Assembly: GCA_041309565.1 (NCBI GenBank)
Contig: JBFYZJ010000278.1
Coordinates: 1-24,404, forward strand
Length of the DNA stretch: 24,404 nt
Source: Candidatus Krumholzibacteriota bacterium
Lineage (GTDB): Bacteria > Krumholzibacteriota > Krumholzibacteriia > Krumholzibacteriales > Krumholzibacteriaceae
Direction: 5' to 3'
Part shown: positions 2,317 to 24,310 of the stretch, piece by piece
Layout: the number at the start of each line of letters is the position of its first letter
How positions within the stretch are numbered: position 1 is the stretch's first letter
The notes under the pieces: model-generated
Seen by the model: only the letters and a program-made list of their open reading frames with translations
What the model was told of the DNA's origin: nothing
The model's database searches: none
Program-made: the position numbers and the translations under genes

Positions 2317-3107
<791 letters not shown>

Positions 3108-3126
3108 CGGTCCGTTCTTCCGGGAG

Positions 3127-3167
3127 GCGGGGGAGCGGGGCGCCTTCGGCGGTCCCGTTTTCCCCGC
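3127..3167 (+). other. Long GC-rich intergenic stem-loop between pyrR and pyrB
   Basis: GCGGGGGA-GCGGGG-CGCC-TTC-GGCG-G-TCCCGT-T-TTCCCCGC, about 18 bp including G-U pairs; no downstream U tract. Confidence 0.5.
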
Positions 3168-3206
3168 GCCCGGCGGGCGCCGGTCACCGAAAGGGGGAGG
3201 CCCACC

Positions 3207-4157
3207 GTGCCGTTTAACAGAAAGCACCTTCTTGCCCTCGAGGAGCTCGCCGCCGAGGAAATCACGACGATCCTCGATACGGCCGACACGTTCAAGGAGA
3301 TCTCCGAGCGGCCGATCAAGAAGGTACCCGCCCTCAGGGGCAAAACGATCGCAAACCTCTTCTACGAGCCGAGCACGCGGACACGCATCAGCTTCGAGCT
3401 CGCCGAGAAGCGCCTGAGCGCCGACACGGTGAGCTTCTCGAAGGCGGGCTCGTCGGTGTCGAAGGGGGAGACGCTCCGCGACACCGTCGAGAACATCCGC
3501 GCGATGAAGGTCGACATGGTCGTCATGCGGCACGGCTCGTCGGGGGCGCACCGGTTCCTCGCGAATTTTCTCGACGCCTCGATCGTCAACGCGGGGGACG
3601 GGCAGCACGAGCATCCGACGCAGGGGCTCCTCGACATGATGACGATGCGCCAGCATCTCGGCGCGCTCGCCGGCAAGCGCGTGACGATCATCGGGGACAT
3701 CATGCACAGCCGCGTGGCGCGCTCGAACATCTGGGGGCTCACGAAGCTCGGCGCCGCGGTCACCGTGTGCGGGCCGTCGACGATGATGCCGGCCGAGATC
3801 GAGCGGCTCGGCGAGGGGGGCGTGACGGTCGAGTACGACATCCGCAAGGCGGTCGCCGAGGCGGACGCGATCAACATCCTCCGAATCCAGCTCGAGCGCC
3901 AGAAGGCCCGGCTCTTCCCGAGCATGCGGGAATATTTCGAAGTGTTCGGCGTGACGCCTGAAGTGCTCGAATCGGCCCCGGAGCACTGCATCGTCATGCA
4001 TCCCGGCCCGATGAACCGGGGAGTCGAAATCGCCCAGGAGATCGCGGACGGCGACCGCGCGGTCATTCTCGAACAGGTCACGAACGGCGTCGCGGTGCGC
4101 ATGGCGGTGCTCTTCCTCGTCGCGGGGGGCAGCTTCGACTCGGGGCCGCTCGAATAG
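3207..4157 (+). CDS. pyrB: Aspartate carbamoyltransferase catalytic subunit
   Basis: FYEPSTRTRISFE, DGQHEHPTQGLLD, HPGPMNRG; GGAGG RBS 3196-3200 before GTG. Confidence 0.97.
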   Translation: MPFNRKHLLALEELAAEEITTILDTADTFKEISERPIKKVPALRGKTIANLFYEPSTRTRISFELAEKRLSADTVSFSKAGSSVSKGETLRDTVENIRAMKVDMVVMRHGSSGAHRFLANFLDASIVNAGDGQHEHPTQGLLDMMTMRQHLGALAGKRVTIIGDIMHSRVARSNIWGLTKLGAAVTVCGPSTMMPAEIERLGEGGVTVEYDIRKAVAEADAINILRIQLERQKARLFPSMREYFEVFGVTPEVLESAPEHCIVMHPGPMNRGVEIAQEIADGDRAVILEQVTNGVAVRMAVLFLVAGGSFDSGPLE

Positions 4158-4185
4158 CGGCAGGCTTTTGCATAGAGGAGATTCA

Positions 4186-5484
4186 ATGATCGACTGGAAG
4201 GACAAACGGGAATTCTGGATCGCGGGCGGGAAGATCGCCGATCCCGAGACGGAGCGGCTCCGCGTCGGCTCCGTATGCGTGCAGAAGGGGAAGATCACCG
4301 ATATCGTCTGGCAGAAGAGCGTCGAAACGGACCTCCCCGTGCTCGACGCCGAGCGCTGCGTGCTGGCGCCCGGCTTCGTCGATCTCCACACGCATCTCCG
4401 GGAGCCCGGCTTCGAGGAGAAGGAGACGATCGAGACCGGATCGGCCGCCGCGGCGGCGGGCGGGTACACGAGCGTCGTCTGCATGGCGAACACGAATCCC
4501 GCCGTCGACGATCCGAGCGTCGTCGAGTACATCGCCTGCCGCGCCCGGGAAACGGGGCGCTGCCGCGTGTTCGTCGCGGGCGCGCTCACGAAGGGTCGCC
4601 TCGGGGAAATCATCAACGAGTACTATCACCTCAAGCGCGCGGGAGTCGTCGCGCTGAGCGACGACGGCGCCTGGGTGACGAACAGCCAGGTGATGCGCAG
4701 CGGGCTCGAGTACGCGGATCTCCACGCGCTCCCCGTCATTTCCCACTGCGAGGATTCGTTCCTCGCGCAGGCGTCGCAGATGAACGAGGGCTACACCTCG
4801 ACGCGCCTCGGGCTCAAAGGCTCGCCCGCCGCCGCCGAGGAGATCGCCGTCTCGCGCGATCTCGCGCTCGCCCAGCTCACCGGCGCGCGGCTCCATGTCG
4901 CGCACGTGTCGACGGCCGGCGCCGTCGAGCTCGTGCGGCGGGCCAAGAAGAAGGGCGTCCGCGTCACCGCCGAAGCGACGCCGCACCACCTCACGTTCGA
5001 CGACCGTCTCCTCGACGGCTACGATCCGAATTTCAAGGTGAATCCCCCGCTCCGGAGCGCGAAGGATGTCGAGGCGCTCCGCGCGGGGCTCCTCGACGGC
5101 ACCATCGACTGCGTCGCCACCGATCACGCCCCCCACAGCGAGATCGAGAAGGACGTCGAGTTCGACGAGGCGCCCGCCGGCATGATCGGGCTCGAGACGG
5201 CGTTCGCCCATCTTTACACGGAGCTCGTCGTGAAGGGCGTTCTCGACCTGCTCGATCTCGTGAAGCTCCTGACGATCAAGCCCGCGGCCGCGCTGGGGCT
5301 CCCCGGGGGCCGCATCGCGCGGGAAGGCCCGGCCGATCTCGTGCTCATCGATCCGGCCGAGGAATGGACCTTCGAAAAGCGGCTCATCCGCTCGAGATCG
5401 AAGAACACGCCGCTCATCGGCGCCCGCTTCACCGGGCGCGTGCAGGGTGTGTTCCTCGAGGGGAGATGGCAGAGCGCCGTCTGA
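4186..5484 (+). CDS. pyrC: Dihydroorotase (type I, multifunctional-complex type)
   Basis: DLHTHLREPG, LSDDG, SHCED, HVAHVST, ATDHAPH: metal ligands and catalytic Asp intact. RBS GAGGAG 4175-4180 favours ATG 4186 (432 aa). Confidence 0.96.
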   Translation: MIDWKDKREFWIAGGKIADPETERLRVGSVCVQKGKITDIVWQKSVETDLPVLDAERCVLAPGFVDLHTHLREPGFEEKETIETGSAAAAAGGYTSVVCMANTNPAVDDPSVVEYIACRARETGRCRVFVAGALTKGRLGEIINEYYHLKRAGVVALSDDGAWVTNSQVMRSGLEYADLHALPVISHCEDSFLAQASQMNEGYTSTRLGLKGSPAAAEEIAVSRDLALAQLTGARLHVAHVSTAGAVELVRRAKKKGVRVTAEATPHHLTFDDRLLDGYDPNFKVNPPLRSAKDVEALRAGLLDGTIDCVATDHAPHSEIEKDVEFDEAPAGMIGLETAFAHLYTELVVKGVLDLLDLVKLLTIKPAAALGLPGGRIAREGPADLVLIDPAEEWTFEKRLIRSRSKNTPLIGARFTGRVQGVFLEGRWQSAV

Positions 5485-5497
5485 GAGGACAATCGCC

Positions 5498-7117
5498 ATG
5501 CGCCTGCACGCGACTCGCATCACCCGCGCCCTCGCCGTCTCCGCGCTCGTCGCCGCGGCGTCGATGCCGTCGTGCGCCTATTTCAACACGCTCTACAACG
5601 CGCGCCGAATCTACGGGGAGGCGGAGAAGACGACGACGGCCGACACCGGCGCCCGCGAGCAGCGCGACAAGTATAAACAGGTCGTGCAGAAATGCGCACA
5701 GATGATCCAGGACCATCCGAAGAGCCGCTGGGTGGACGACGCGATGTTCCTCATGGGGAAAGCGCTCGTCAGGCAGGAGGAGTACGACAAGGCGATACGG
5801 ACGTTCCAGGAGATCCAGACGAATTTCCCGCAGAGCGATTACGTTCCTCATTCGATCTACTGGCTCGCGCTCGCCTATCATCTGAAGGGGGACGACGCGC
5901 AGGCGCTCGCGGCGGTCGATCGGTTTCTCGCTGAGTATCCCCGGCACGAGCTGCGTTTCGACGCCCTGTTCCTCGGCGGCGACGGCAAGCGCGCCCTCGA
6001 GGATTACGACGGAGCGCTCGAATACTACGGGATCGTCGCTTCCGAAGCGAGCAAGAAGGAGATCGTGGACGAGTCGCGGCTCAAGAGCGCCGAGCTCTTC
6101 CGCAGCCGCGGGGAATGGGACAAAGCGGCGGAGAGTTACCGCTTGGTATTGCGCAAGGGCCTCCCGTGGGAGCGGCGATACGAGATATCGCTCGCGCTCG
6201 GTGAATGCCTCACGATGACCGGCGCGTGCGCCGAGGCGCTCGCCATCTTCGACGAGCTCATTCCGAAGACGACCGTGACGCTCGAGATGCCGCCGCTTCT
6301 GCTCGGGAGGGCCGCGAGCTACGAATGCATGGATTCCATCCCCCGGGCGCTCGATGAGTACCGGGTCATCGGGACGAAGTACCCGAAGTCGGCTTTTTCC
6401 GCCGAAGCGAACTATCGCATGGGAATCATCTACCAGGAGCGGCTCGATTCGCTGCGGCTCGCCGCCGACGCGTTCGCCAAAGTGGGGGGGGAGTACGCGA
6501 ACTCGGAGTTCGCCGCCGTTTCCCTCGAGCGGAGCAGCAGCATCAAGCGTCTCCTCGAGCTGCAGCAAGCGGGGGGCGCGGGGGAGAGCGCCGAGCAGGC
6601 CGCGAACAAACGCTTCATGGCCGCCGAGATCCAGCTGACCCGGCTCGGGGATATTCCGACGGCCCTCGTCGGCTACCAGGCCGTGCTCGACAGCTTTCCC
6701 GGAACGTCCGCCGCGCCCAAGGCGGCGTACGCGATCGCGTGGATCCGCGGGAACGAGCTCGACGAGGGGGACGCGGCGATCGAGAGCTGGCGTCTCCTCG
6801 TCGAGCGCTATCCGCGCTCGTATCAGGCGAAGGGAGCGCTCGGCCAGCTCAGGAGCGCCGGCGCCGATTCCCTCGCGGCGCGCCTCGAGGCGTACCGGGA
6901 TTCGGCGCTCGCCGATACGGCGCACGCGGAACCGCCGCTTGCCGGCGCGGCGAGCGCAGACACCGCGCGTGCCGATACGCTCCGTGCGGGTCCGGCGCCG
7001 GCGGACACGGTGCGGGCCGATGCGCCTCGGGCGGGCCCGGCGCTCGCGGACACGACGCGCGTCGACACGATGCGCGTGGACACGCTGCGCGCACCGGGGG
7101 AGAGGGGTGTGCGATGA
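5498..7117 (+). CDS. Tetratricopeptide-repeat lipoprotein (SprE/PorW- or BamD-like)
   Basis: Basic N-region plus hydrophobic stretch then Cys26 (atypical lipobox MPSC), followed by CAYFNTLYNA, HPKSRWVDDAMFLMGKA and many TPR helix pairs ending in YP/FP motifs. RBS GAGGA 5485-5489; 539 aa. Confidence 0.8.
   Translation: MRLHATRITRALAVSALVAAASMPSCAYFNTLYNARRIYGEAEKTTTADTGAREQRDKYKQVVQKCAQMIQDHPKSRWVDDAMFLMGKALVRQEEYDKAIRTFQEIQTNFPQSDYVPHSIYWLALAYHLKGDDAQALAAVDRFLAEYPRHELRFDALFLGGDGKRALEDYDGALEYYGIVASEASKKEIVDESRLKSAELFRSRGEWDKAAESYRLVLRKGLPWERRYEISLALGECLTMTGACAEALAIFDELIPKTTVTLEMPPLLLGRAASYECMDSIPRALDEYRVIGTKYPKSAFSAEANYRMGIIYQERLDSLRLAADAFAKVGGEYANSEFAAVSLERSSSIKRLLELQQAGGAGESAEQAANKRFMAAEIQLTRLGDIPTALVGYQAVLDSFPGTSAAPKAAYAIAWIRGNELDEGDAAIESWRLLVERYPRSYQAKGALGQLRSAGADSLAARLEAYRDSALADTAHAEPPLAGAASADTARADTLRAGPAPADTVRADAPRAGPALADTTRVDTMRVDTLRAPGERGVR
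6911..7090 (+). repeat. Degenerate pentapeptide repeats (A/V)D(T/A)x(R/H) in the TPR protein C-terminal tail
   Basis: ADTAH, ADTAR, ADTLR, ADTVR, ADAPR, ADTTR, VDTMR, VDTLR in an Ala/Pro/Gly-rich low-complexity tail. Confidence 0.8.
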
Positions 7118-7932
7118 AGCGGGATCGCAGAGGCTGTTTCAGCGCCGCGCTGAAAAGAAACACGCGCGTATCCCCGTCCTGTTCCCTGCTCGTGCTCGAG
7201 CGGCCGGACGGTTTTCCCGACGCGCGGCCCGGTCAGTTCGTCTCGATACGGGTCGCCGATTCGCCGGTGCCGCTTCTGCGGCGGCCGTACAGCATCATGG
7301 ATTGCTCGCCGAGAACGATCTCGCTCCTCGTCAAGGCGGTCGGACGCGGCTCGTCGTCGATCGCCGCGCGGAAGCCGGGGGACGCGCTCGACATCATGGG
7401 CCCGCTCGGCGGATCGTCGTTTCCCGAGCCCGACGGGGCGCCGGCGATATTCGTCGCCGGGGGAACGGGACTCGCGCCGCTCCTCTTCGCCGCCCGCGCG
7501 TGGCGTCGGAGGCGCGTCGCGGGGAAGATCGTCATGCTCTACGGAGCGGGGAGCCGCGGCGAGCTGCTCCGCGATCTGGTGAAGGGGGAATTCTCCTCTC
7601 GCGCGTTCGCCACGCTCGACGGCTCATCGGGTTTTCACGGTGACGTCGTGGCGCTGTGCCGCTCGCTCGTCCGCGACAGGCGGCTTCCCGCCGGCGGAAC
7701 GCTCTACTCGTGCGGGCCCCGCGGCATGGTCCGCGCGCTCGAAGAGGAGGTTCGCGGCGCGTTCCGCGCCCATTACACGTCGCTCGAATCGGTCATGGCG
7801 TGCGGCGTCGGCGCGTGCCGCGGCTGCGTGGTGCCCGTCGGGAAAAAGGGAGCGACCGTGCTCAGGACCGTGTGCAACGACGGCACGGTCTTCGACGCGG
7901 CCGATATCGCCTGGGAGGAGTGGGAGGAATGA
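7114..7932 (+). CDS. pyrK: Dihydroorotate dehydrogenase electron transfer subunit (FAD, 2Fe-2S)
   Basis: PGQFV, LRRPYSI, AGGTGLAP, CGPRGM, MACGVGACRGC...VC (four Cys). ATGA overlaps on both sides; 272 aa. Confidence 0.93.
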   Translation: MKRDRRGCFSAALKRNTRVSPSCSLLVLERPDGFPDARPGQFVSIRVADSPVPLLRRPYSIMDCSPRTISLLVKAVGRGSSSIAARKPGDALDIMGPLGGSSFPEPDGAPAIFVAGGTGLAPLLFAARAWRRRRVAGKIVMLYGAGSRGELLRDLVKGEFSSRAFATLDGSSGFHGDVVALCRSLVRDRRLPAGGTLYSCGPRGMVRALEEEVRGAFRAHYTSLESVMACGVGACRGCVVPVGKKGATVLRTVCNDGTVFDAADIAWEEWEE

Positions 7933-8840
7933 AGCAGCGCGCGGCGCGATTCTCGATCGGTCCCGTCGCATTCAGGAACCGCGTGTTTCTCGCCTCCGGT
8001 CCGGCGGGCTACGGCGTCGAGTACGCCGATTTCATCAGGCTCGACCGGCTCGGGGGCGTCGTCACGAAAACGATCACACTCCGTCCGCGGGCCGGCAATC
8101 CCGGCCGGCGCCTTTGGGAGACGAGCGCGGGGCTCCTCAACAGCATCGGGCTCGAGAACGTGGGGGCGGTCGTCTTCTTCGCCGAGAAGCTCCCGGCGCT
8201 CGCCGCCGCCGGCGCGAAGCCCGTCGTGAGCCTCGGCGCCGAGGATTGGGACGATTACCGCCGGCTCCTCGACGCCGCAGCCGGCTGCGGCGGCGCCGAC
8301 GCGTTCGAGATCAACCTCTCGTGCCCGAACGTCGAGCGGGGGGGCATGGCGGTGGGGAGCGATCCCGAGCTGTTGGCGAAATACGTGCGCCGCGCCGTCG
8401 AAACGCTCGAGGGGCGTGCCGTCATCGCGAAGCTCACGCCGAACGTGAGCGACGTCGCCGTTCTCGCCAAAGCGGCGGCCTCCGCGGGGGCGCACGCGCT
8501 CACCGCGATCAACACGGTCGTCGGCGCCGATCTGTGCCCCGATCTCCGCGCGCCCGTGTTCCGGCGCGTGAGGGCGGGCCTGTCCGGGCCGGCGATCCTC
8601 CCGGTGGCGCTCGATGCCGTCTGGAAGATCGCGCGCGCCGTCGATATCCCCGTCATCGGCTCGGGCGGCGTGTCGAGCGTGGATGACGCCGGGAAATTCT
8701 TCGCGGCGGGAGCCGCGGCCGTGCAGGTCGGCACGGCGATCTTCGCCGATCCGGGTCTGCCCGAGCGCATCGCCGCCTCGCTCGCGAGGCGGGGGATCCC
8801 GCGGGCCATCGGCGCGAAACCGTCATCGAAGGAGTGCTGA
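7929..8840 (+). CDS. pyrD: Dihydroorotate dehydrogenase family 1B catalytic subunit
   Basis: KTIT, NSIGLEN, EINLSCPNV (catalytic Cys), KLTPN, GLSGPAI, GSGG, QVGTA. ATG 7929 overlaps the pyrK stop; 303 aa. Confidence 0.95.
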   Translation: MKQRAARFSIGPVAFRNRVFLASGPAGYGVEYADFIRLDRLGGVVTKTITLRPRAGNPGRRLWETSAGLLNSIGLENVGAVVFFAEKLPALAAAGAKPVVSLGAEDWDDYRRLLDAAAGCGGADAFEINLSCPNVERGGMAVGSDPELLAKYVRRAVETLEGRAVIAKLTPNVSDVAVLAKAAASAGAHALTAINTVVGADLCPDLRAPVFRRVRAGLSGPAILPVALDAVWKIARAVDIPVIGSGGVSSVDDAGKFFAAGAAAVQVGTAIFADPGLPERIAASLARRGIPRAIGAKPSSKEC

Positions 8841-9569
8841 ATGAACGCCCCGTCGAACAGCCCCGCCGTCATCGTCGCGCTCGACGTCGAGGAGCGCTCG
8901 AAGGCGCGCGATCTCGTCGCCGCGTGCGGGGACGCGATCCGCTGGTACAAGATCGGAAGCCGTCTCTTCACCGCCGAGGGTCCCGGAATCGTCGGAGAGA
9001 TCAGGGCGCTCGGCGCCTCCGTGTTTCTCGATCTCAAGTTCCACGACATTCCGGCGACCGTCGAGGGGGCCGTGCGCGCCGCGACGGCGCTCGGCGCGTC
9101 GATGATGACGATCCACACCTCGGGAGGCGTCGAGATGATGCGCGCGGCGTCGCGGGCCGCGGCGGCCGAATCGCAGCGCCTCGGCGTCGCGCGGCCGCTC
9201 GTCGTCGGCGTCACCGTGCTGACGAGCCTCTCCGGGGACGATCTTTCGCGCACCTTCGGCACGACGGGAGCGGTGCGCGATCTGGTCATGCGTCTCGCGG
9301 CTCAAGCGCGCGAGGCGGGGCTCGACGGCATCGTCGCCTCGGTCGAGGAAGCGCGCGCGGTCAAGGAGTCGCTCGGCGCCGGATTCAAGGTCGTCACGCC
9401 GGGCATCCGGCCGGCCGGCGCAGGGGCGGGGGATCAGAAGCGCGTGGCGACGCCGCGCGCGGCCCGCGACGCGGGAAGCGATTTCCTCGTCGTCGGCCGT
9501 CCGATCATCGAGGCGGACTCGCCGCGCGAGGCGGCGGAGCGCATTCTCGATGAATTGAAAGCGAGGTAA
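8841..9569 (+). CDS. pyrF: Orotidine-5'-phosphate decarboxylase
   Basis: VALD, FLDLKFHDIP (DxKxxD), GVTVLTS, VTPGIRP, DQKRVATP, VVGRPI. Confidence 0.96.
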   Translation: MNAPSNSPAVIVALDVEERSKARDLVAACGDAIRWYKIGSRLFTAEGPGIVGEIRALGASVFLDLKFHDIPATVEGAVRAATALGASMMTIHTSGGVEMMRAASRAAAAESQRLGVARPLVVGVTVLTSLSGDDLSRTFGTTGAVRDLVMRLAAQAREAGLDGIVASVEEARAVKESLGAGFKVVTPGIRPAGAGAGDQKRVATPRAARDAGSDFLVVGRPIIEADSPREAAERILDELKAR

Positions 9570-10857: not shown

Positions 10858-10886
10858 CGCCCGCGTGCAGCTTGCGAGCACGGGCG
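10858..10886 (+). terminator. Hairpin immediately after the permease stop; possible 3' end of the pyr transcript
   Basis: CGCCCG(C)GTGC pairs with GCACGGGCG. No U tract, so not a canonical intrinsic terminator. Confidence 0.3.
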
Positions 10887-10930
10887 GGGTGCAGTCGGCG
10901 GCAGGACCCGCGTATCGGACTCGATTCACG

Positions 10931-10960
10931 TTGACGGGCCCCTCGTAATTTCATTACAAT
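10931..10960 (+). promoter_or_regulatory. Strong sigma70-type promoter of the sugar-nucleotide cluster
   Basis: TTGACG (10931-10936) - 18 nt - TACAAT (10955-10960) in the most AT-rich patch of the intergenic region. Confidence 0.75.
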
Positions 10961-11057
10961 TGGAAAGTTAAGCTCCGCGCCGGGACGTTCCGCGGGCCGC
11001 AGGAACGGATGCGCCCCGTGCGCCGTCCTCGCATACCATTTGCAGAAGGGGAACGAG

Positions 11058-18059: not shown

Positions 18060-19166
18060 GTGACGAGAATCGGGCTCTTGACGGCGGTCGTTCTATCCTT
18101 CGCGCTCGGGTTGCTCTTCACGCCGCTCGTCCGGGGCATGGCGACGCGCCTGCGAATCTGCGAGAAGCCGAACGGGCGCACGAGCAGGGATATCGTGCAT
18201 ATCGGCGGCGTCGGCATCATCGGTGCGATCCTCTTCACGCTCCTGCCGACGTTCCTGTTCTTCCTGCCCGGCGGACCGGTCGTGCAGGCGTTCACCCCGG
18301 TGCTGATCGCGAGCGGCTTTCTCATCTTTCTCCTCGGCATCATCGACGACCTGCGGAGCCTGCACTACATCTACAAGCTCATTCTGCAGATCGCCGTCTC
18401 GGTTTTCGTCGCCGCCGTGGGACTCGCGCTCCTCATGCATTTCGGCGCGTCCCACATCGCCGTGTATCTCATCGTGCCGCTGGTCTTCGCGATCGCCGGT
18501 TGGATGCTCGTCGTCACGACGTCGTTCAACCTGATCGACGGGCTCGACGGGCTCGCGTCGGGGCTCGCGTTCATCGCGGCGGCGGCGTTCGCCGTCGCCG
18601 GCCAGCTTTTCGGCCAGCCGCTCGTCGTCGCGGTCGCGCTCGTCGTATGCGGCGCGACGCTCTCGTTTCTCAGATATAACTTTCCTCCGGCGACGATCTT
18701 CATGGGCGATTCGGGCAGCCTCTTCCTCGGCCTGCTGTTCGGGCTCGTTTCGCTGCTGCTCCTCGTACCGGGGGACCGCGTCTTCTACCGGATCGCAGGG
18801 GATATCATGATCCTCGCCGTGCCGATCCTCGACACGGCGCTCGCATTCACGCGGCGGATGCTCACGCGCCGCCCCGTGTTCGAGGCCGATCACCGGCATA
18901 TCCACCACATGCTCCTCTACCGGTGCCGGTCGGCGCGGAGCGTCGATCTCACGCTCTGGGGAGTGTCCGCCGTCTTCGGCGCGCTCGGCGTTCTCACGAT
19001 GCGGGGAAGCATCGTCGCGCTCGCCGCGGGATCGGCGCTCGCGCTGTTCGTATTCGTGATCGCGCTCCGCTCGATGGTGCGCTTCAAAATGCCCGTCACG
19101 GCCGAGGAGGAGATTCTCGGCGTGTGCGGCATCACCTCCGCCCGGGGCGTCGCGCGCCAGCGATAG
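18060..19166 (+). CDS. Undecaprenyl-phosphate N-acetylhexosamine-1-phosphate transferase (WecA/TagO, MraY-like family)
   Basis: GIIDDL, FNLIDGLDGLA, YNFPPATIFMGDSGS, PILDT, DHRHIHH; RBS AAGGAG 18047-18052 before GTG. Confidence 0.9.
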   Translation: MTRIGLLTAVVLSFALGLLFTPLVRGMATRLRICEKPNGRTSRDIVHIGGVGIIGAILFTLLPTFLFFLPGGPVVQAFTPVLIASGFLIFLLGIIDDLRSLHYIYKLILQIAVSVFVAAVGLALLMHFGASHIAVYLIVPLVFAIAGWMLVVTTSFNLIDGLDGLASGLAFIAAAAFAVAGQLFGQPLVVAVALVVCGATLSFLRYNFPPATIFMGDSGSLFLGLLFGLVSLLLLVPGDRVFYRIAGDIMILAVPILDTALAFTRRMLTRRPVFEADHRHIHHMLLYRCRSARSVDLTLWGVSAVFGALGVLTMRGSIVALAAGSALALFVFVIALRSMVRFKMPVTAEEEILGVCGITSARGVARQR

Positions 19167-19198
19167 TCCGCCCGCGCTCCGCGTCGCCGTCTTTCCAA

Positions 19199-19227
19199 TT
19201 GCGTTTTCAGGAGTGCTGTGATAGCTT
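19199..19227 (+). promoter_or_regulatory. sigma70-type promoter with extended -10 upstream of the HemC-like gene
   Basis: TTGCGT (19199-19204) - 17 nt - TAGCTT (19222-19227), preceded by TG-n (19219-19221). Confidence 0.6.
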
Positions 19228-19273
19228 CGTCCCCGGGATTACGTCAATGACGCACGCGCGAAGAGGAGACGCA

Positions 19274-20209
19274 ATGGGCCGCGCGAAACATATCATCATC
19301 GGCAGCCGCCGGGACGAGCTCTCGATGCTCTGTCGCGCGCATGTGCGCGCCGCACTCCTCGAGGCGCATCCGAACGCGGAATTCATGGACGCGCCCGACG
19401 GGCCGGGGCGGGACGATCGAGGACCGGCGGACCGGAAGATCGGCGCGCGCCGGGCGGCGACCCTGCTCCAGCGTCTGGTGAAAGGGGAGCTCGACGTCGT
19501 CGTGCTGGACGCGTGCCTGATCCCGCTCCAGATCGCCGGCACGCTCGAGATCGCGGCCGTATTGCCGAGGACGAATCCGTTCGATGCGCTCGTTTCGGTC
19601 GAGAGCCTCATTCTCGACGAGCAGCCCGAGAACGCGAGCGTCGCCGTGAGCGATCCGGTGAAGCGCGGGCAGCTTCTCTATTACCGGAGCGATCTCAAGC
19701 TCGTGAGCGGCGACGGCGATTTCAACGGTCTCTTCGAGGCGATGAATCGCGGGGCGGTCGACGCGTTCGTCTATCCGGCCGCCGACGTCGAGATGCTGAA
19801 TCAGCAGGAGCACGTCGCCGAGGTCTTCACGACGTCGATCTGCACGCCCGTCGCGGGACAGGGCGCGATCGCGCTCGTCGGCCGCCGCGACAGGAAGGAG
19901 ATCGCTTCGATGCTGCGGGATATCGGCGATCGGTCGGCGGCGGCGGAGGTCGAGATCGAGCGGATGTTCCTCGAGCGCGTCGCGAAGGACGGACGGGCTC
20001 CGGTCGGTGTCCTCGCCAACGTCGAGGAGAGCGAGTTCGAAATCGAAGCGGCGATCGTCGCCGTCGACGGCTCCGAGAAGATCACCGGCATCATGAGCGG
20101 CGCGCTCGCCGACCGCGCGCGGATCGTCGAAAAGCTCGCGGGAGAGATCCTCTCGTCGGGCGGGGAAGAAATCGTCGCATCGTTCAGAAAGCAGAAGGCG
20201 AACGGCTGA
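19274..20209 (+). CDS. Hydroxymethylbilane synthase (porphobilinogen deaminase, HemC)-fold protein, predicted catalytically inactive
   Basis: Colinear by eye with HemC over its full 311 aa (IGSR, PRTNPFDALVS, GQL, PVAGQGAIA, IER..L, VDGS, LAGEILSSGG), but lacks catalytic Asp84, cofactor Cys242 and most active-site Arg (E. coli numbering). RBS AGAGGAG 19262-19268. Confidence 0.8.
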   Translation: MGRAKHIIIGSRRDELSMLCRAHVRAALLEAHPNAEFMDAPDGPGRDDRGPADRKIGARRAATLLQRLVKGELDVVVLDACLIPLQIAGTLEIAAVLPRTNPFDALVSVESLILDEQPENASVAVSDPVKRGQLLYYRSDLKLVSGDGDFNGLFEAMNRGAVDAFVYPAADVEMLNQQEHVAEVFTTSICTPVAGQGAIALVGRRDRKEIASMLRDIGDRSAAAEVEIERMFLERVAKDGRAPVGVLANVEESEFEIEAAIVAVDGSEKITGIMSGALADRARIVEKLAGEILSSGGEEIVASFRKQKANG

Positions 20210-20213
20210 CGCG

Positions 20214-21485
20214 ATGCTCGACCGGAAACTCATACGGAAAGATCCCGAACGGGTGCGGGAAGGGCTGCGTCGCAAGGGATCGACGTTCGATCTCGACGCG
20301 TTCCTCGCGCTCGACGAGAAGCAGCGCGCGCTCATCCAGGAGACGGAGAATCTCAAGCACGAGCGGAACGAGGCCTCCCAGGAGATTTCGCGCCTCAAGA
20401 AGGAGAACCTCGACGCGACGGCGATTCTCGAGCGGATGAAGCGCTCCTCCGAGCGGATCAAGGAAATCGACGCCGAGCTCAAGGAGCTCGGCGCGCGGAT
20501 CGACGAGCAGGCGCTTCTCATTCCGAATCTCCCGCACGAGTCGGCGCCGTACGGCACGTGCCCGGAGCACAACGTGGTGCAGCGGTCCTGGGGTTCGGTT
20601 CCCGATCCGTTCGACGGGATGCTCCCGCACTGGGATATCGGCGAGAAGCTCGGAATCATCGATATCGGCGCCGGCAGCTGCCTGAGCGGCCGGGGATTCG
20701 TGGTGCTCCGCGGGGAGGGAGCGCGCCTGTCGCGGGCGCTCGTCAATTTCATGATCGATCTGCATCGCGAGCAGGGCTACGAGGAAATCTCGGTTCCGTA
20801 TCTCGTGAGTCGCGAATGCATGATCGGCACGGGACAGCTTCCGAAGCTCGCTGAGGACATGTACCACAGCGAAAAGGACGATCTCTTCCTCATCCCCACG
20901 GCCGAAGTGCCGCTCACCAACATGTACCGCGGGGCGGTGCTCGACGGGGCGCGCCTCCCGGTCAAGCTCACCGCGTTCAGCCCGTGCTTCCGCCGCGAGG
21001 CGGGGAGCTACGGACAGGACACCAAAGGGCTCGTTCGCGTGCATCAGTTCGACAAGGTCGAGATGGTGAAGCTCGTGGCTCCCGAGTCGTCGTACGAGGA
21101 GCTCGAAGCGCTCACGCGCGACGCGACCGCTGTCCTCGAGGCGCTCGAAATCCCCTACCGCGTCATCGAGCTCTGCACGATGGACATGAGCTTCGGCGCC
21201 GCGAAGTGTTACGATCTCGAAACCTACGCGCCGGCGATGGGACGCTGGCTCGAGGTATCGTCGTGCAGCAGCTTCGAGGATTTCCAGGCGCGCCGCGCGA
21301 ATATCCGTTTCAAACGGCAACCGAACGAGAAGCCCGAGTTCGTGCACACGCTGAACGGCTCGGGGCTCGCGCTTCCGCGGGTCATCGCGACGATCCTCGA
21401 GCTCAACCAGACGCCGACCGGCAAGGTCCGCATTCCCCGTGCCCTCGTCCCCTACCTGGGGGGCAGGGAATACCTCGAGGCCTGA
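20214..21485 (+). CDS. serS: Serine--tRNA ligase
   Basis: N-terminal coiled coil MLDRKLIR..., LIPTAEVP, CFRREAGSYGQDTKGLVRVHQFDKVE (motif 2), EVSSCS, HTLNGSGLA (motif 3). Confidence 0.97.
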   Translation: MLDRKLIRKDPERVREGLRRKGSTFDLDAFLALDEKQRALIQETENLKHERNEASQEISRLKKENLDATAILERMKRSSERIKEIDAELKELGARIDEQALLIPNLPHESAPYGTCPEHNVVQRSWGSVPDPFDGMLPHWDIGEKLGIIDIGAGSCLSGRGFVVLRGEGARLSRALVNFMIDLHREQGYEEISVPYLVSRECMIGTGQLPKLAEDMYHSEKDDLFLIPTAEVPLTNMYRGAVLDGARLPVKLTAFSPCFRREAGSYGQDTKGLVRVHQFDKVEMVKLVAPESSYEELEALTRDATAVLEALEIPYRVIELCTMDMSFGAAKCYDLETYAPAMGRWLEVSSCSSFEDFQARRANIRFKRQPNEKPEFVHTLNGSGLALPRVIATILELNQTPTGKVRIPRALVPYLGGREYLEA

Positions 21486-21492
21486 TCGAACC

Positions 21493-22734
21493 ATGAGGGC
21501 GCCACGCAATTTTCCGTTTCTCCTCAAGGTGTATGTCATCGCGGGCAGCGTCGTCGTCGTCGCATTCGCCCTCATGTACAACAACGGCATCATCAAGAAA
21601 ATGAGCGTGCAGTCGGCGCGGACGACGAACCAGTACGCGCGCTTCATCGGGCTGCAGATCGACCAGCTCGACGACCGGGGCAGCTCCGAATTCATTCGGG
21701 AGACGCTCCGCGATCTGAACGCGCCGTGCATCATCACGGACGCCGCCGGACGACCGATGATCTGGAATCAGCAGACCGGGATTCCGCCGCTCGGTCCGGA
21801 CGAGTACGGCCGGATGATCAAATACGATCCCGCCGCCCCGAACGATCCGCTGCTCGAGAAGGTCCAGCGGAGGGCGCTCGCCTACGACCGGGTGAACGAG
21901 CCGGTTCTCATCGAGTCGGAGAAGCTGCGGGCGGTGCTCCACTACGGCCCGTCGTCGCTCTCGCGGGAGCTCGCCGTCGCGCAGTACGTGCAGATCGGCG
22001 TCTTCGTGGTTTTCGTCCTGTTCGGGTTCCTCGGGTTCCGGGTGGTGAAGAGCGGCGAGCAGCGGTCGATCTGGGTCGGTATGGCGAAGGAGACCGCCCA
22101 TCAGCTCGGCACGCCCCTCTCGTCGATCATGGGGTGGATCGCCATGATCCGCGAGGAGCTCGCGGCGGCGCGCGGCTCGGAGAAGCTCTCGATGGCGATC
22201 GACGAGGTCGAGACGGACGTCGAACGGTTGAGCAAGATCTCCGCTCGGTTCAGCAAGATCGGTTCGGCGCCGAAGCTCGACCTCCAGGAGCTCGTCCCGA
22301 TCGTCGACGAGACGGTGCGCTACTTCGAACGGAGACGCCCGACGCTCAAAATCAACTCGACGATCACGACCGAATCGGACGAGCTCCCCCTCATCCGGTG
22401 CAGCAAGGAGCTCATCGGGTGGGTCATCGAGAACATGATCAAGAATTCGCTCGACGCGATCGCGGGGGACGAGGGGAAGATCCATATTCAGTGCCGGATG
22501 AACGAGCGCGAGCGGCGCGTCGAGATCCTCTTCGGCGATAACGGCAAGGGAATGAGCCCGGGGGTGCGCAAGCGCGTCTTCTCTCCCGGATTCACCACGA
22601 AGAGCCGCGGCTGGGGGCTCGGGCTGTCGCTCGTGAAGCGCATCGTCGAGGATATTCACGGCGGATCGATCAAGGTTCTCGAGTCGCAGCCGGGAAAAGG
22701 GACGACGTTTCTCATCACCTTTCCGGTCGATTGA
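21493..22734 (+). CDS. porY: Membrane sensor histidine kinase, PorY-like
   Basis: Two TM helices flanking a ~140-aa sensor domain; H box WVGMAKETAHQLGTPLSS, N box VIENMIKNSLDA, DNGKG, FSPGFTTK, GWGLGL. PorY assignment rests on recalled motif similarity plus adjacency to porX; 413 aa. Confidence 0.75.
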   Translation: MRAPRNFPFLLKVYVIAGSVVVVAFALMYNNGIIKKMSVQSARTTNQYARFIGLQIDQLDDRGSSEFIRETLRDLNAPCIITDAAGRPMIWNQQTGIPPLGPDEYGRMIKYDPAAPNDPLLEKVQRRALAYDRVNEPVLIESEKLRAVLHYGPSSLSRELAVAQYVQIGVFVVFVLFGFLGFRVVKSGEQRSIWVGMAKETAHQLGTPLSSIMGWIAMIREELAAARGSEKLSMAIDEVETDVERLSKISARFSKIGSAPKLDLQELVPIVDETVRYFERRRPTLKINSTITTESDELPLIRCSKELIGWVIENMIKNSLDAIAGDEGKIHIQCRMNERERRVEILFGDNGKGMSPGVRKRVFSPGFTTKSRGWGLGLSLVKRIVEDIHGGSIKVLESQPGKGTTFLITFPVD

Positions 22735-22756: not shown

Positions 22757-24310
22757 ATGGCGAAGGAAAAGCGTATTCTCTGGGTGGACGACGAGATCGA
22801 TCTCCTGAGCTCCCATATCATGTTTCTCGGAACAAAAGGGTACGCGGTGACGTCCGCCTCGAGCGGGGACGAAGGGGTTGCCGCGCTCAAGACGGGGCGG
22901 TTCGATCTTGTCCTCCTCGACGAGACGATGCCGGGCAAGAGCGGGCTCGAGACGCTGCAGGAGATCAAGGAGATCGATTCGAACCTGCCCGTCATCATGA
23001 TCACGAAGAACGAGGCGGAAGGCCTCGTCGACCAGGCCATCGGCATGAAGATCGACGACTATCTCCTCAAGCCCGTGAATCCGCTCCAGATCTACTCGGC
23101 GGCGAAGCGCATCCTCGACGCGCATCGCATCCAGGAGACCGTGCTCAGCAAGGATTACCTCCAGGCGTACCAGCGGATCGACGGGAATCTGCACGCGAGC
23201 CCGGACTGGCGCGGCTGGATCGACATTCATCAGGAGCTTTCCCTGTGGGACGTCGAGTTCGACCGTTTCAGCGCGACGGGGCTCGAGCAGACCCAGCAGG
23301 ATCTCAAGAAGAAATCGAACTCCGATTTCGCGCGCTATATCGAGCGCGTCTACCCGGGCTGGATGCGCGACTCGGAGCGACCCCCGCTGAGCGTCGACGT
23401 GATGAAGCGCTGGGTGTTTCCGCGCCTCAAGGACGGGAAGAAGGTCTACTTCGTGCTCATCGACTGCATGCGGTACGACCAGTGGCTCAAGATCGAGGAT
23501 CTGCTGGCTCCTTTCTATAATATAGAACGGGAGTGCTACTACTCCATTCTGCCAACGGCGACGCCGTACGCGCGGAACGCGATATTCGCCGGCGCCTTTC
23601 CGTCCGAGATCCAGAAACGAACCCCGGAGCAATGGCTCGAGCGATCGAAGGACGAGTTCAGCAAGAACCGCTTCGAGCACGCCTTTCTGCAGGAGCAGCT
23701 CGCGCGGGCGGGCCTCGCCGGCGTGACGACGAAATACATCAAAATTTACGAGATCGAGGAGGCGAACGAGATCCGCAAGCAGGTCGACAGCTACCGCGGC
23801 ATCGATCTCGTGTCCATGGTGTTCAACTTTCTCGATATCCTCGCGCACGGCCGCAGCCAGAGCGAGATCCTGCAGGAGATCGCGCCCGACGAGAGCGCTT
23901 TCCGGTCGCTCATGCGCTCGTGGTTCGTCCATTCGGCGCTCTTCGATATCCTCCAGCGGATATCGAAGCACGGCTCCACCGTGGTCATCACGACCGATCA
24001 CGGCTCGATCCTCGGCGCGCGGGCGAGCCTCGTGCACGGGAACCGCGACACCTCGACGAATCTCAGGTACAAGTTCGGCGAGAACATCAACGGCGACCCG
24101 CGGCAGACGCTCCTGATCCGCAAACCGGGCGAGTACAACCTGCCCGCGGAGGGTCCTTCCAAGAACTACATTCTCGCGAAGGAGAATTTCTACTTCGTCT
24201 ATCCGACGAAATTCCACGAGTACGAACGGCAATACATGGGGACGTTCCAGCACGGCGGAATCTCGCTCGACGAAATGGTCGTGCCGTGCGTCACCCTGAC
24301 CCCGAGGTAA
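22757..24310 (+). CDS. porX: PorX-type response regulator: receiver domain fused to a PglZ/alkaline-phosphatase-superfamily domain
   Basis: REC: ILWVDDE, LLDETMPG (phospho-Asp), MITK, LLKPVNP. PglZ: LIDCMRYDQW, SILPTATPYARNAIF, NFLDILAH, TTDHG, FQHGGISL. Confidence 0.92.
   Translation: MAKEKRILWVDDEIDLLSSHIMFLGTKGYAVTSASSGDEGVAALKTGRFDLVLLDETMPGKSGLETLQEIKEIDSNLPVIMITKNEAEGLVDQAIGMKIDDYLLKPVNPLQIYSAAKRILDAHRIQETVLSKDYLQAYQRIDGNLHASPDWRGWIDIHQELSLWDVEFDRFSATGLEQTQQDLKKKSNSDFARYIERVYPGWMRDSERPPLSVDVMKRWVFPRLKDGKKVYFVLIDCMRYDQWLKIEDLLAPFYNIERECYYSILPTATPYARNAIFAGAFPSEIQKRTPEQWLERSKDEFSKNRFEHAFLQEQLARAGLAGVTTKYIKIYEIEEANEIRKQVDSYRGIDLVSMVFNFLDILAHGRSQSEILQEIAPDESAFRSLMRSWFVHSALFDILQRISKHGSTVVITTDHGSILGARASLVHGNRDTSTNLRYKFGENINGDPRQTLLIRKPGEYNLPAEGPSKNYILAKENFYFVYPTKFHEYERQYMGTFQHGGISLDEMVVPCVTLTPR

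Follow-up and report, generated by a model that had tools for sequence, protein, structure and literature searches.

A conserved HemC-like protein upstream of serS in Krumholzibacteriota, probably a non-catalytic relic of a haem biosynthesis operon

Introduction

Hydroxymethylbilane synthase (HMBS; also known as porphobilinogen deaminase or HemC, EC 2.5.1.61) is among the most rigidly conserved enzymes known. Here we describe a HemC-like protein that has kept the fold of HMBS but in which nearly the whole active site has been rewritten. It is encoded in a stretch of 24,404 nucleotides from a Candidatus Krumholzibacteriota bacterium (assembly GCA_041309565.1, contig JBFYZJ010000278.1, positions 1 to 24,404 of the forward strand), which we call the window. 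The gene occupies positions 19274 to 20209 on the plus strand. We refer to its product, a putative HemC-like pseudoenzyme, as HemCL.

The best explanation of our results as a whole is that HemCL is probably a catalytically dead descendant of HMBS, a relic of a hem operon that has taken on a non-catalytic role. The main new result concerns this likely origin from a hem operon upstream of serS. The family would then be a clean natural case of an enzyme turning into a pseudoenzyme across a phylum: sister lineages still show stages of the conversion, and the ancestral operon can be seen in another lineage. An initial annotation of the window, made from the sequence alone, knew of no described family of this kind. 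The texts reached by our full-text literature searches agree with it. They contain no HMBS-derived pseudoenzyme (HMBS and pseudoenzyme together led to an unrelated protist study), and the passages retrieved from a 2026 review of haem biosynthesis do not deal with an HMBS paralogue or pseudoenzyme.

Results

Homology and fold

The open reading frame (ORF) of HemCL runs from an ATG at 19274 to a TGA at 20207–20209 and encodes 311 amino acids. Its GC content at third codon positions is 0.87, compared to 0.86–0.89 in the neighbouring genes. HemCL passes the cutoffs of both Pfam families of HemC, PF01379 with 73 bits and PF03900 with 26.4 bits (cutoff 26), and among solved structures its sequence is closest to that of E. 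coli HMBS (1ah5/1pda; E about 1e-19 with HMMER). On the hemC model TIGR00212 it scores 124.1 bits, under the equivalog cutoff of 164, whereas its canonical relatives score 349–355 bits. The initial annotation had described a full-length, uninterrupted HemC homologue in the codon usage of its host, and all of this holds.

An AlphaFold2 model built with the family alignment as input (predicted local distance difference test, pLDDT, 91.1; predicted template modelling score 0.89) has the three-domain HMBS fold, with two lobes like those of periplasmic binding proteins (PBPs) and a C-terminal domain. Foldseek matches the model to E. coli HMBS (1pda/1ah5) with template modelling (TM) scores of 0.88–0.92, root-mean-square deviations of 2.2–2.4 Å and an E value of 1e-31, at a sequence identity of 24–25%. 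The top 32 matches in the PDB are all HMBS (TM 0.84–0.95, deviation about 2 Å). The next class is that of solute-binding proteins, with TM scores of 0.33–0.46 and E values of 1e-8 to 1e-9. The two lobes form a Venus-flytrap architecture with its hinge motifs intact.

Distribution and selection

A search of 5.8 billion proteins found 76 clusters of intact HemCL sequences, which are 43–100% identical and score at least 236 bits. Below this value scores fall abruptly to 117 bits, where ordinary HemCs begin. Scanning the GTDB species genomes yielded 31 HemCL loci. The named ones come mostly from Candidatus Krumholzibacteriota, and the other labels are one Eisenbacteria, one Latescibacteria and one record of the Patescibacteria group. 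An alignment of 46 sequences contains 48 invariant columns and 34 more that are at least 90% conserved.

One could suspect that such a gene is decaying into a pseudogene, or that the ORF has persisted only for the promoter and the translational coupling of the essential gene serS. HemCL is the fastest-evolving gene of its block (37–47% identity where SerS keeps 67–74%), and it has a conserved promoter-like element on one side and serS, 4 nt away, on the other. However, neither the 76 clusters nor the genome loci that hold the whole gene show any break in the reading frame, the codon usage is that of the host and the predicted fold is confident. The ratio of nonsynonymous to synonymous substitutions (dN/dS) is 0.21–0.32 at a synonymous divergence (dS) of 0.40–0.68 (Nei–Gojobori method, window against seven relatives). 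For comparison, the neighbouring genes give 0.19–0.25 (the glycosyltransferase gene upstream) and 0.07–0.17 (SerS). This ratio, together with the invariant columns, rules out a decaying pseudogene, and we see almost no room for either form of the argument. The initial annotation had proposed to collect homologues and had named a dN/dS near 1 as the mark of decay; the homologues exist, and the ratio is far from that mark. A preserved three-domain fold under purifying selection means that HemCL does something. Hence, it is very likely a functional protein.

The active site and the charge of the cleft

All active-site substitutions that the initial annotation had listed by eye are recovered in our HMMER alignment and in a MAFFT alignment with 46 relatives. 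The motif HSMKD84VP has become LDACLIP, which turns Lys83 into Cys81 and the catalytic Asp84 into Leu82 (codon 19517–19519). EGGC242QVP reads AKDGRAP, with Gly240 (codon 19991–19993) in place of Cys242, which carries the dipyrromethane cofactor. Most of the arginines are replaced as well: TSSLR131R132 is VSDPVK (Arg131 and Arg132 to Val129 and Lys130), LR149GNVGTR155 is GDGDFNGL (Arg149 to Asp147, Arg155 to Leu153) and AGLKR176L is ADVEML (Arg176 to Met174). Of R11, R131, R132, R149, R155 and R176 HemCL therefore retains R11 only, with a lysine for R132. The positions of Ser13 and Ser81 are Asp. Still present are the equivalents of R11, R101, D106, Q198/G199 and R232.

The active-site lid of HMBS, TRGD...GGKGLF (T-x-G-D ... 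G-G-K-G-L/V-F), is missing altogether. A degenerate loop at residues 41–58 stands in for it, and the pLDDT is below 50 at residues 44–53. In the family this segment (window 19394–19447) has a length range of up to about 30 residues, and P0039, P0050, P0054 and P0062 carry inserts rich in Arg, Ala and Gly there (columns 95–130 of family alignment A1).

The family does not share every one of these residues. Cys81/Leu82 is peculiar to the subclade of the window, most members have Arg-Trp or Arg-Glu instead, and the position of Asp84 can be Trp, Glu, Arg, Leu or Met. An Arg131 that is invariant in the family stands one residue past the lost arginine pair. The position of the cofactor cysteine is Gly in 46 of 46 aligned members and Cys in essentially all canonical HemCs that we tabulated. 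Cys190 (SICTP) at first looked like a novel conserved cysteine, but it was dropped because canonical HemCs commonly have it too (ICLP).

We tabulated 21 functional positions across about 250 sequences; those named are R11, S13, S81, K83, D84, T127, S129, R131, R132, R149, G150, N151, R155, A170, G173, R176, Q198, G199, R232 and C242. The canonical HemCs (about 146, from many phyla) are nearly invariant at these positions, reading R S S K D T S/G S R R R G N R A G R Q G R C. At the same places the Krumholzibacteriota family has R/K D D R W/E/L V/A x D/E V K D/E D D L P D A/M/T Q G R G.

These replacements change the charge of the cleft. Summed over 19 cleft positions, the formal charge is +6.5 ± 0.6 in 146 canonical sequences and −2.5 ± 1.0 in 87 family members; for HemCL itself the net charge of the cleft is −3, compared to +6 in E. 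coli HMBS. The whole-protein charge is −2 in canonical HemCs and −10 in the family. The shift in the cleft is thus about as large as that of the entire protein, which means that the acidification is concentrated in the cleft. At the level of the sequence, the charge reversal that the initial annotation had described is real.

What could an acidic cleft be good for? A PBP-like cleft of this kind might bind a cationic molecule or a metal and relay its closure to the histidine kinase or to PorX, which are encoded downstream. The charge swing of about nine units makes up nearly all of the whole-protein change, and five acidic residues (D14, D79, D149, D171 and E173) reach at least 90% conservation in the core family of 46 sequences. 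Aromatic residues (W82, F150 and Y136/Y137) lie beside acidic ones, as they do in the polyamine-binding proteins PotD and PotF. The hinge motifs are intact, and HemCL is co-oriented and tightly spaced with a two-component system. Across the family, however, the cleft shows a general trend towards acidic residues in which individual positions drift. At least 90% conservation is reached by 7 of the 19 cleft positions and by 75 of the 292 positions elsewhere, which is no more than the protein average. Positions 82, 125–127, 147–148, 151–153 and 174 vary, the acidic positions drift further in the wider family, and the loop that replaces the lid is disordered and differs in length. Relative to canonical HemC, conservation has moved from the cleft loops to residues 101–140, residues 181–200 and domain 3, so that the strongest new constraint is not found at the cleft mouth. 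We consider a sensor of cations or metals, which the initial annotation had proposed, unlikely.

Alternatively, the arginine cluster may have become a liability once the polyanionic cofactor was lost, and acidic or neutral residues may have replaced it without any ligand being involved. The acidic residues would then pair with the remaining basic ones and with the basic former Cys loop (K238-D-G-R241), and the protein would act as a scaffold through surface contacts, for example those of domain 3. The former Cys loop has indeed kept its length and is conserved as K/R-D/N-G-R/K-G/A-P, with a mean charge of +1.5 compared to 0.0 in canonical HemCs. An Eisenbacteria intermediate with a basic cleft carries an acidic loop (DHEDF) at this place. 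A scaffold would also fit the shift of conservation away from the cleft loops and into domain 3 and the hinge regions. The correlation between the charges of loop and cleft, however, is not significant (rho −0.20, p 0.31, n = 28 independent lineages). A self-neutralised scaffold is a tentative proposal, which we would not favour over its negation.

Haem supply

Krumholzibacteria need haem. Their metagenome-assembled genomes (MAGs) are reported to encode cox, cbb3, cyd and cyo oxidases as well as OmcS and Cyc2 (PMC7914226), and they are among the taxa with many multi-haem proteins (PMC11495043). One could therefore argue that HemCL is still an HMBS, one that works without the canonical cysteine-linked cofactor. 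Its fold is fully preserved. Searches for a second hemC with the HemC P0137 and with HemB of its canonical lineage found neither gene on a HemCL-bearing contig among the best 120 matches, which is a weak test that a divergent copy could escape. The Krumholzibacteriota papers and supplements that we searched make no statement on hem genes.

The active site speaks against this argument. Five features that define HMBS are absent from HemCL, namely a score above the equivalog cutoff, Cys242, Asp84, the arginine set and the lid. Of the six essential arginines, four are lost, and the partner genes hemD, hemB and hemL appear to have been deleted from the locus. Without a cysteine for the cofactor, without the catalytic aspartate and with an acidic cleft where carboxylates should bind, HMBS activity seems very unlikely, as far as residues can predict it. 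That HemCL is no longer an HMBS is a conclusion we hold with high confidence, and an unconventional HMBS is correspondingly hard to imagine.

Intermediate homologues and the ancestral operon

Our hidden Markov model search of 1.84 billion representative sequences shows that scores slope gradually from the HemCL family to the plateau of canonical HemCs. The sequences in between are HemC homologues that lack Cys242 and have partial active sites. For example, P0141 retains K83, D84, R131, R132 and R155, and P0134 (HET9325247.1, Candidatus Eisenbacteria) retains D84, R132, R149 and R176. The scores on TIGR00212 descend in steps from 355/349 bits (canonical) over 224/215 and 132/129 to 89–124 bits in Krumholzibacteriota. 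The clade of the window is the fully remodelled end of this series. In a neighbour-joining tree this clade is monophyletic with 99% bootstrap support. Another homologue, P0139 (L043 2776–3762), has lost Lys83, Asp84, Arg131 and Arg155, and has a cysteine one residue ahead of the Cys242 position (RLEGCAGES compared to RLEGGCQVP).

The intermediates also share their place in the genome with HemCL. All six Cys242-less homologues whose contigs we examined lie directly upstream of serS and a histidine kinase gene, and PorX and tsaE come next wherever the contig reaches that far. A seventh, from Eisenbacteria (L037), stands just upstream of serS, after which the contig ends. In the Eisenbacteria locus L040 the genes upstream are ffh and rpsP instead of a glycan cluster. 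Across all loci that are long enough serS adjoins the HemC homologue, except for a small tetratricopeptide repeat (TPR) gene of 119–120 amino acids that intervenes in L040 (8823–9182) and L041 (1069–1431). This small gene overlaps the stop codon of the HemC-like gene and may encode a lineage-specific partner of the HemC-like protein.

The canonical HemC that scores best against the HemCL family profile, P0137, is located in a hem cluster. P0283, also canonical and 70% identical to P0137, is found in the order sugar-nucleotide genes, cysG_N, hemC, cobA/hemD, hemB, hemL, serS and histidine kinase, and these gene identities pass the NCBIfam cutoffs. The SerS of this organism is 57% identical to that of the window, a similar distance to that of the Eisenbacteria SerS proteins (52–53%). 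It is likely that HemCL is what remains, still in its old place, of a hem operon like this one.

Gene neighbourhood and expression

All twenty genes of the window lie on the plus strand. They begin with a peptidase, an EamA transporter, a pyrimidine cluster with a TPR gene inside and a CitMHS transporter, and end with five sugar-nucleotide enzymes, a flippase, a WecA/MraY-type transferase, HemCL, serS, a histidine kinase and PorX. Beyond PorX, relatives have tsaE, tsaB and rimI.

Downstream of HemCL the genes are closely packed. The seryl-tRNA synthetase gene serS (20214–21485; TIGR00414, 491 bits against a cutoff of 302) starts 4 nt past the HemCL stop. It is followed by a sensor histidine kinase at the position of PorY (21493–22734), which has HisKA and HATPase_c domains and reaches no specific NCBIfam equivalog. 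The longest ORF of the kinase starts at GTG 21439, but ATG 21493 fits its homologues better; in relatives the kinase starts 8–10 nt past serS. PorX, a type IX secretion system (T9SS) response regulator with a PglZ domain (22757–24310; Response_reg and PglZ), reaches 638 bits on NF052313, well over the cutoff of 300. Every locus that extends far enough has the order HemCL, serS, histidine kinase and PorX. The window contains no further hem gene, and 44 related loci have none at a distance of up to 10 kb from the homologue.

Upstream of HemCL there is a spacer of 108 nt. It contains a two-block element at 19188–19235, with TTGCGT at 19199–19204, a 15-nt spacer and TGT-GATAGC at 19217–19225. Eight relatives, at a synonymous divergence of 0.35–0.68 from the window, have the element unchanged, while the flanking spacer has diverged. 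Counterparts (TTGCC, TTTACA or TTGACT, then 15–17 nt and TGTGATAGC) precede the homologue throughout the phylum and also in Eisenbacteria-type and intermediate loci. The window has a single copy of the 9-mer TGTGATAGC, where chance would predict 0. A sigma-70 scan of 18800–21700 gave 0 sites, and terminator-like matches were at background level. Since this generic scan is silent and the block is conserved, we call the element promoter-like only; its conservation makes it a likely promoter. Rfam families gave no match anywhere in the window at their gathering thresholds. The Shine–Dalgarno sequence GAGGAG (19263–19268) lies 5 nt before the ATG, and its GGAG core is invariant in eight relatives.

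The initial annotation had placed HemCL at the head of an operon that also includes serS and PorY/PorX, with a strong ribosome binding site, its own predicted promoter and no hem genes nearby. The tightly packed string, in which PorX is a true equivalog, the conserved ribosome binding site and the missing hem genes all agree with our results. The promoter prediction fares less well, as the sigma-70 scan does not recover it; what we find in its stead is the conserved element.

The gene before the spacer (18060–19166) encodes a polyprenyl-phosphate sugar-phosphate transferase of the WecA/MraY family, or glycosyltransferase family 4 (GT4; PF00953; TIGR02380 wecA 88 bits, below cutoff). It is the last gene of the upstream sugar-nucleotide/glycan cluster, and we treat it as context, not as part of the HemCL unit. 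It precedes HemCL in all Krumholzibacteriota loci and is not found in Eisenbacteria L040. This arrangement raises the question whether the HMBS fold has been re-tooled into a new enzyme whose substrate is cationic or an amino sugar, with a possible connection to the glycan cluster. The cleft and its surroundings contain several conserved Asp and Glu residues as well as a conserved Arg131 and Gln133, and the gene lies directly downstream of the sugar-nucleotide/flippase/GT4 cluster in all Krumholzibacteriota loci. But the conserved promoter-like element separates GT4 from HemCL, and in Eisenbacteria the homologue stays with serS even though ffh and rpsP have taken the place of the cluster. Furthermore, positions 81 and 82, the former catalytic dyad, vary freely in the family. 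A new enzyme thus appears improbable. We think equally little of the proposal that HemCL is a third, ligand-sensing component of PorY/PorX or a sensor of haem or tetrapyrrole status. If it were true, then a cytochrome-rich phylum would have lost the local haem operon and retained the fold of HMBS for a receptor in the cytoplasm. Such a receptor would respond to a metabolite and tune secretion or envelope functions (T9SS) or serS expression. The same goes for a bolder variant in which HemCL is the sole HemC homologue of its lineage and makes hydroxymethylbilane independently of the cysteine.

The gene order around HemCL is conserved over about 20 kb throughout the phylum, even where HemCL identity is as low as 37–44%, which is unusually stable for a comparison at phylum level. 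In L001–L044 this order comprises pyrK-pyrD-pyrF, the CitMHS transporter, sugar-nucleotide genes, GT4, HemCL, serS, the histidine kinase and PorX. It continues downstream with tsaE, tsaB, rimI, a gene of the PNP/UDP phosphorylase family (PF01048), a Mur ligase, ROK and LptD. Two contigs of long-read MAGs (L002/L016 10918–11937; L023 11313–12173) have a truncated (307 aa) or partly matched serS and an over-long kinase. These are probably assembly frameshift errors and not cases of gene loss.

Further upstream in the window, the pyrimidine cluster (2385–9569) consists of a PyrR-like phosphoribosyltransferase, pyrB, pyrC, pyrK, pyrD and pyrF, with a TPR/YfiO-like gene of 556 amino acids (5447–7117) between pyrC and pyrK. 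The spacer before the phosphoribosyltransferase (2234–2384) has a promoter-like pair, TTGCAC-N17-GCTACGCT, and a GC-rich hairpin-like stretch without an Rfam match. In the spacer before the sugar-nucleotide cluster (10858–11039) there is a near-consensus sigma-70 pair, TTGACG and TACAAT, 18 nt apart. This suggests that promoters in this organism of the Fibrobacterota–Chlorobiota–Bacteroidota (FCB) group are of the classical −35/−10 type and not of the Bacteroidota type.

Discussion

Our results suggest the following history. The common ancestor of Krumholzibacteriota and Eisenbacteria would have had a hem operon, cysG_N-hemC-cobA/hemD-hemB-hemL, immediately in front of serS and a histidine kinase gene. 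The remaining hem genes would then have been deleted from this site, and the hemC copy left in place. This copy may have shed Cys242 and Asp84 as well as the lid and the arginines that bind carboxylates, while the cleft between the domains turned from strongly basic to acidic. Today HemCL probably heads a unit that also comprises serS, the histidine kinase gene and PorX, and is transcribed from the conserved promoter-like element in front of it. Its product would bind a ligand or serve as a scaffold, without any catalysis. In one version, a cationic ligand sits in the remodelled Venus-flytrap cleft; in the other, the cleft has been neutralised and the protein works through contacts with a partner. 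Naming any particular ligand or partner would be speculative, and we doubt each candidate that we considered.

The initial annotation had interpreted HemCL as a repurposed cytoplasmic sensor or binding protein, possibly for a cationic ligand or a metal. That it is HemC-derived and conserved is supported by our data; its probable origin as the remnant of a hem operon had been missed.

Several observations weigh against this explanation. First, the neighbour-joining tree does not resolve whether all Cys-less forms have a single origin (bootstrap 26–52%), nor whether the P0137/P0283 clade is their sister, and long-branch attraction among degraded sequences is likely. Since the deep branches are not resolved, the relic scenario rests on synteny, and this synteny is seen in one canonical lineage with three loci. 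Second, with a gene order that is shared over about 20 kb, the proximity of HemCL to serS and PorXY is weak evidence for a functional tie and may simply have been inherited. Third, Krumholzibacteria MAGs encode many haem proteins, and it is a question where a phylum so rich in multi-haem cytochromes and haem-copper oxidases gets its haem. The second point is partly offset, as HemCL, serS, the histidine kinase and PorX stay together where the upstream context has been replaced, which strengthens a functional tie somewhat. Any specific link of HemCL to PorXY or SerS is unlikely all the same.

If HemCL is indeed a catalytically dead relic, then it is a trap for automated metabolic reconstruction, which would credit its host with a step of the haem pathway that is probably not performed. 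JGI names most of the Cys242-less HemC homologues hydroxymethylbilane synthase. NCBI gives the same name to P0134, because homologues with 215–224 bits pass the TIGR00212 cutoff, and calls one member of the HemCL family a hypothetical protein. As a result of such labels, reconstructions for Krumholzibacteriota and Eisenbacteria may wrongly include the hemC step. Another appealing aspect of HemCL is its fixed place at the head of a serS-PorY-PorX unit, which makes it a candidate for a T9SS regulatory accessory in a little-studied branch of the FCB group.

Comparison with known systems

HemCL is most similar to HMBS itself (1PDA, 1AH5). The two share the three-domain architecture, the length and the hinge and structural motifs ER.NP.D, LD..P, GQGA, ER and DG. 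HemCL differs from HMBS in that Asp84 is replaced by Leu (Trp or Glu in relatives), the cleft is acidic instead of basic and there are no hem genes nearby. The Cys-less homologues of the Eisenbacteria type (P0134, P0141, P0138 and P0139) resemble HemCL in their position upstream of serS, the histidine kinase, PorX and tsaE and in the loss of Cys242. Unlike HemCL, those of the P0134/P0141 type keep subsets of the ancestral active site, and some still reach 215–224 bits on TIGR00212.

Domains 1 and 2 of HemCL also resemble type II PBP binders such as TauA, SsuA, the VFT2 domain of BvgS and ArgBP, which have the same two-lobe, two-hinge Venus-flytrap. This likeness supports the idea that a small ligand could sit in the cleft. 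In contrast to these binders, HemCL gives TM scores of no more than 0.33–0.46 to them, has neither a signal peptide nor a transporter or receptor partner, and carries an extra third domain of the HMBS type, a loop of which reaches into the cleft. Finally, HemCL has what pseudoenzymes in general have in common: it is homologous to an enzyme, it has lost the catalytic residues and it has been kept by purifying selection over a long time.

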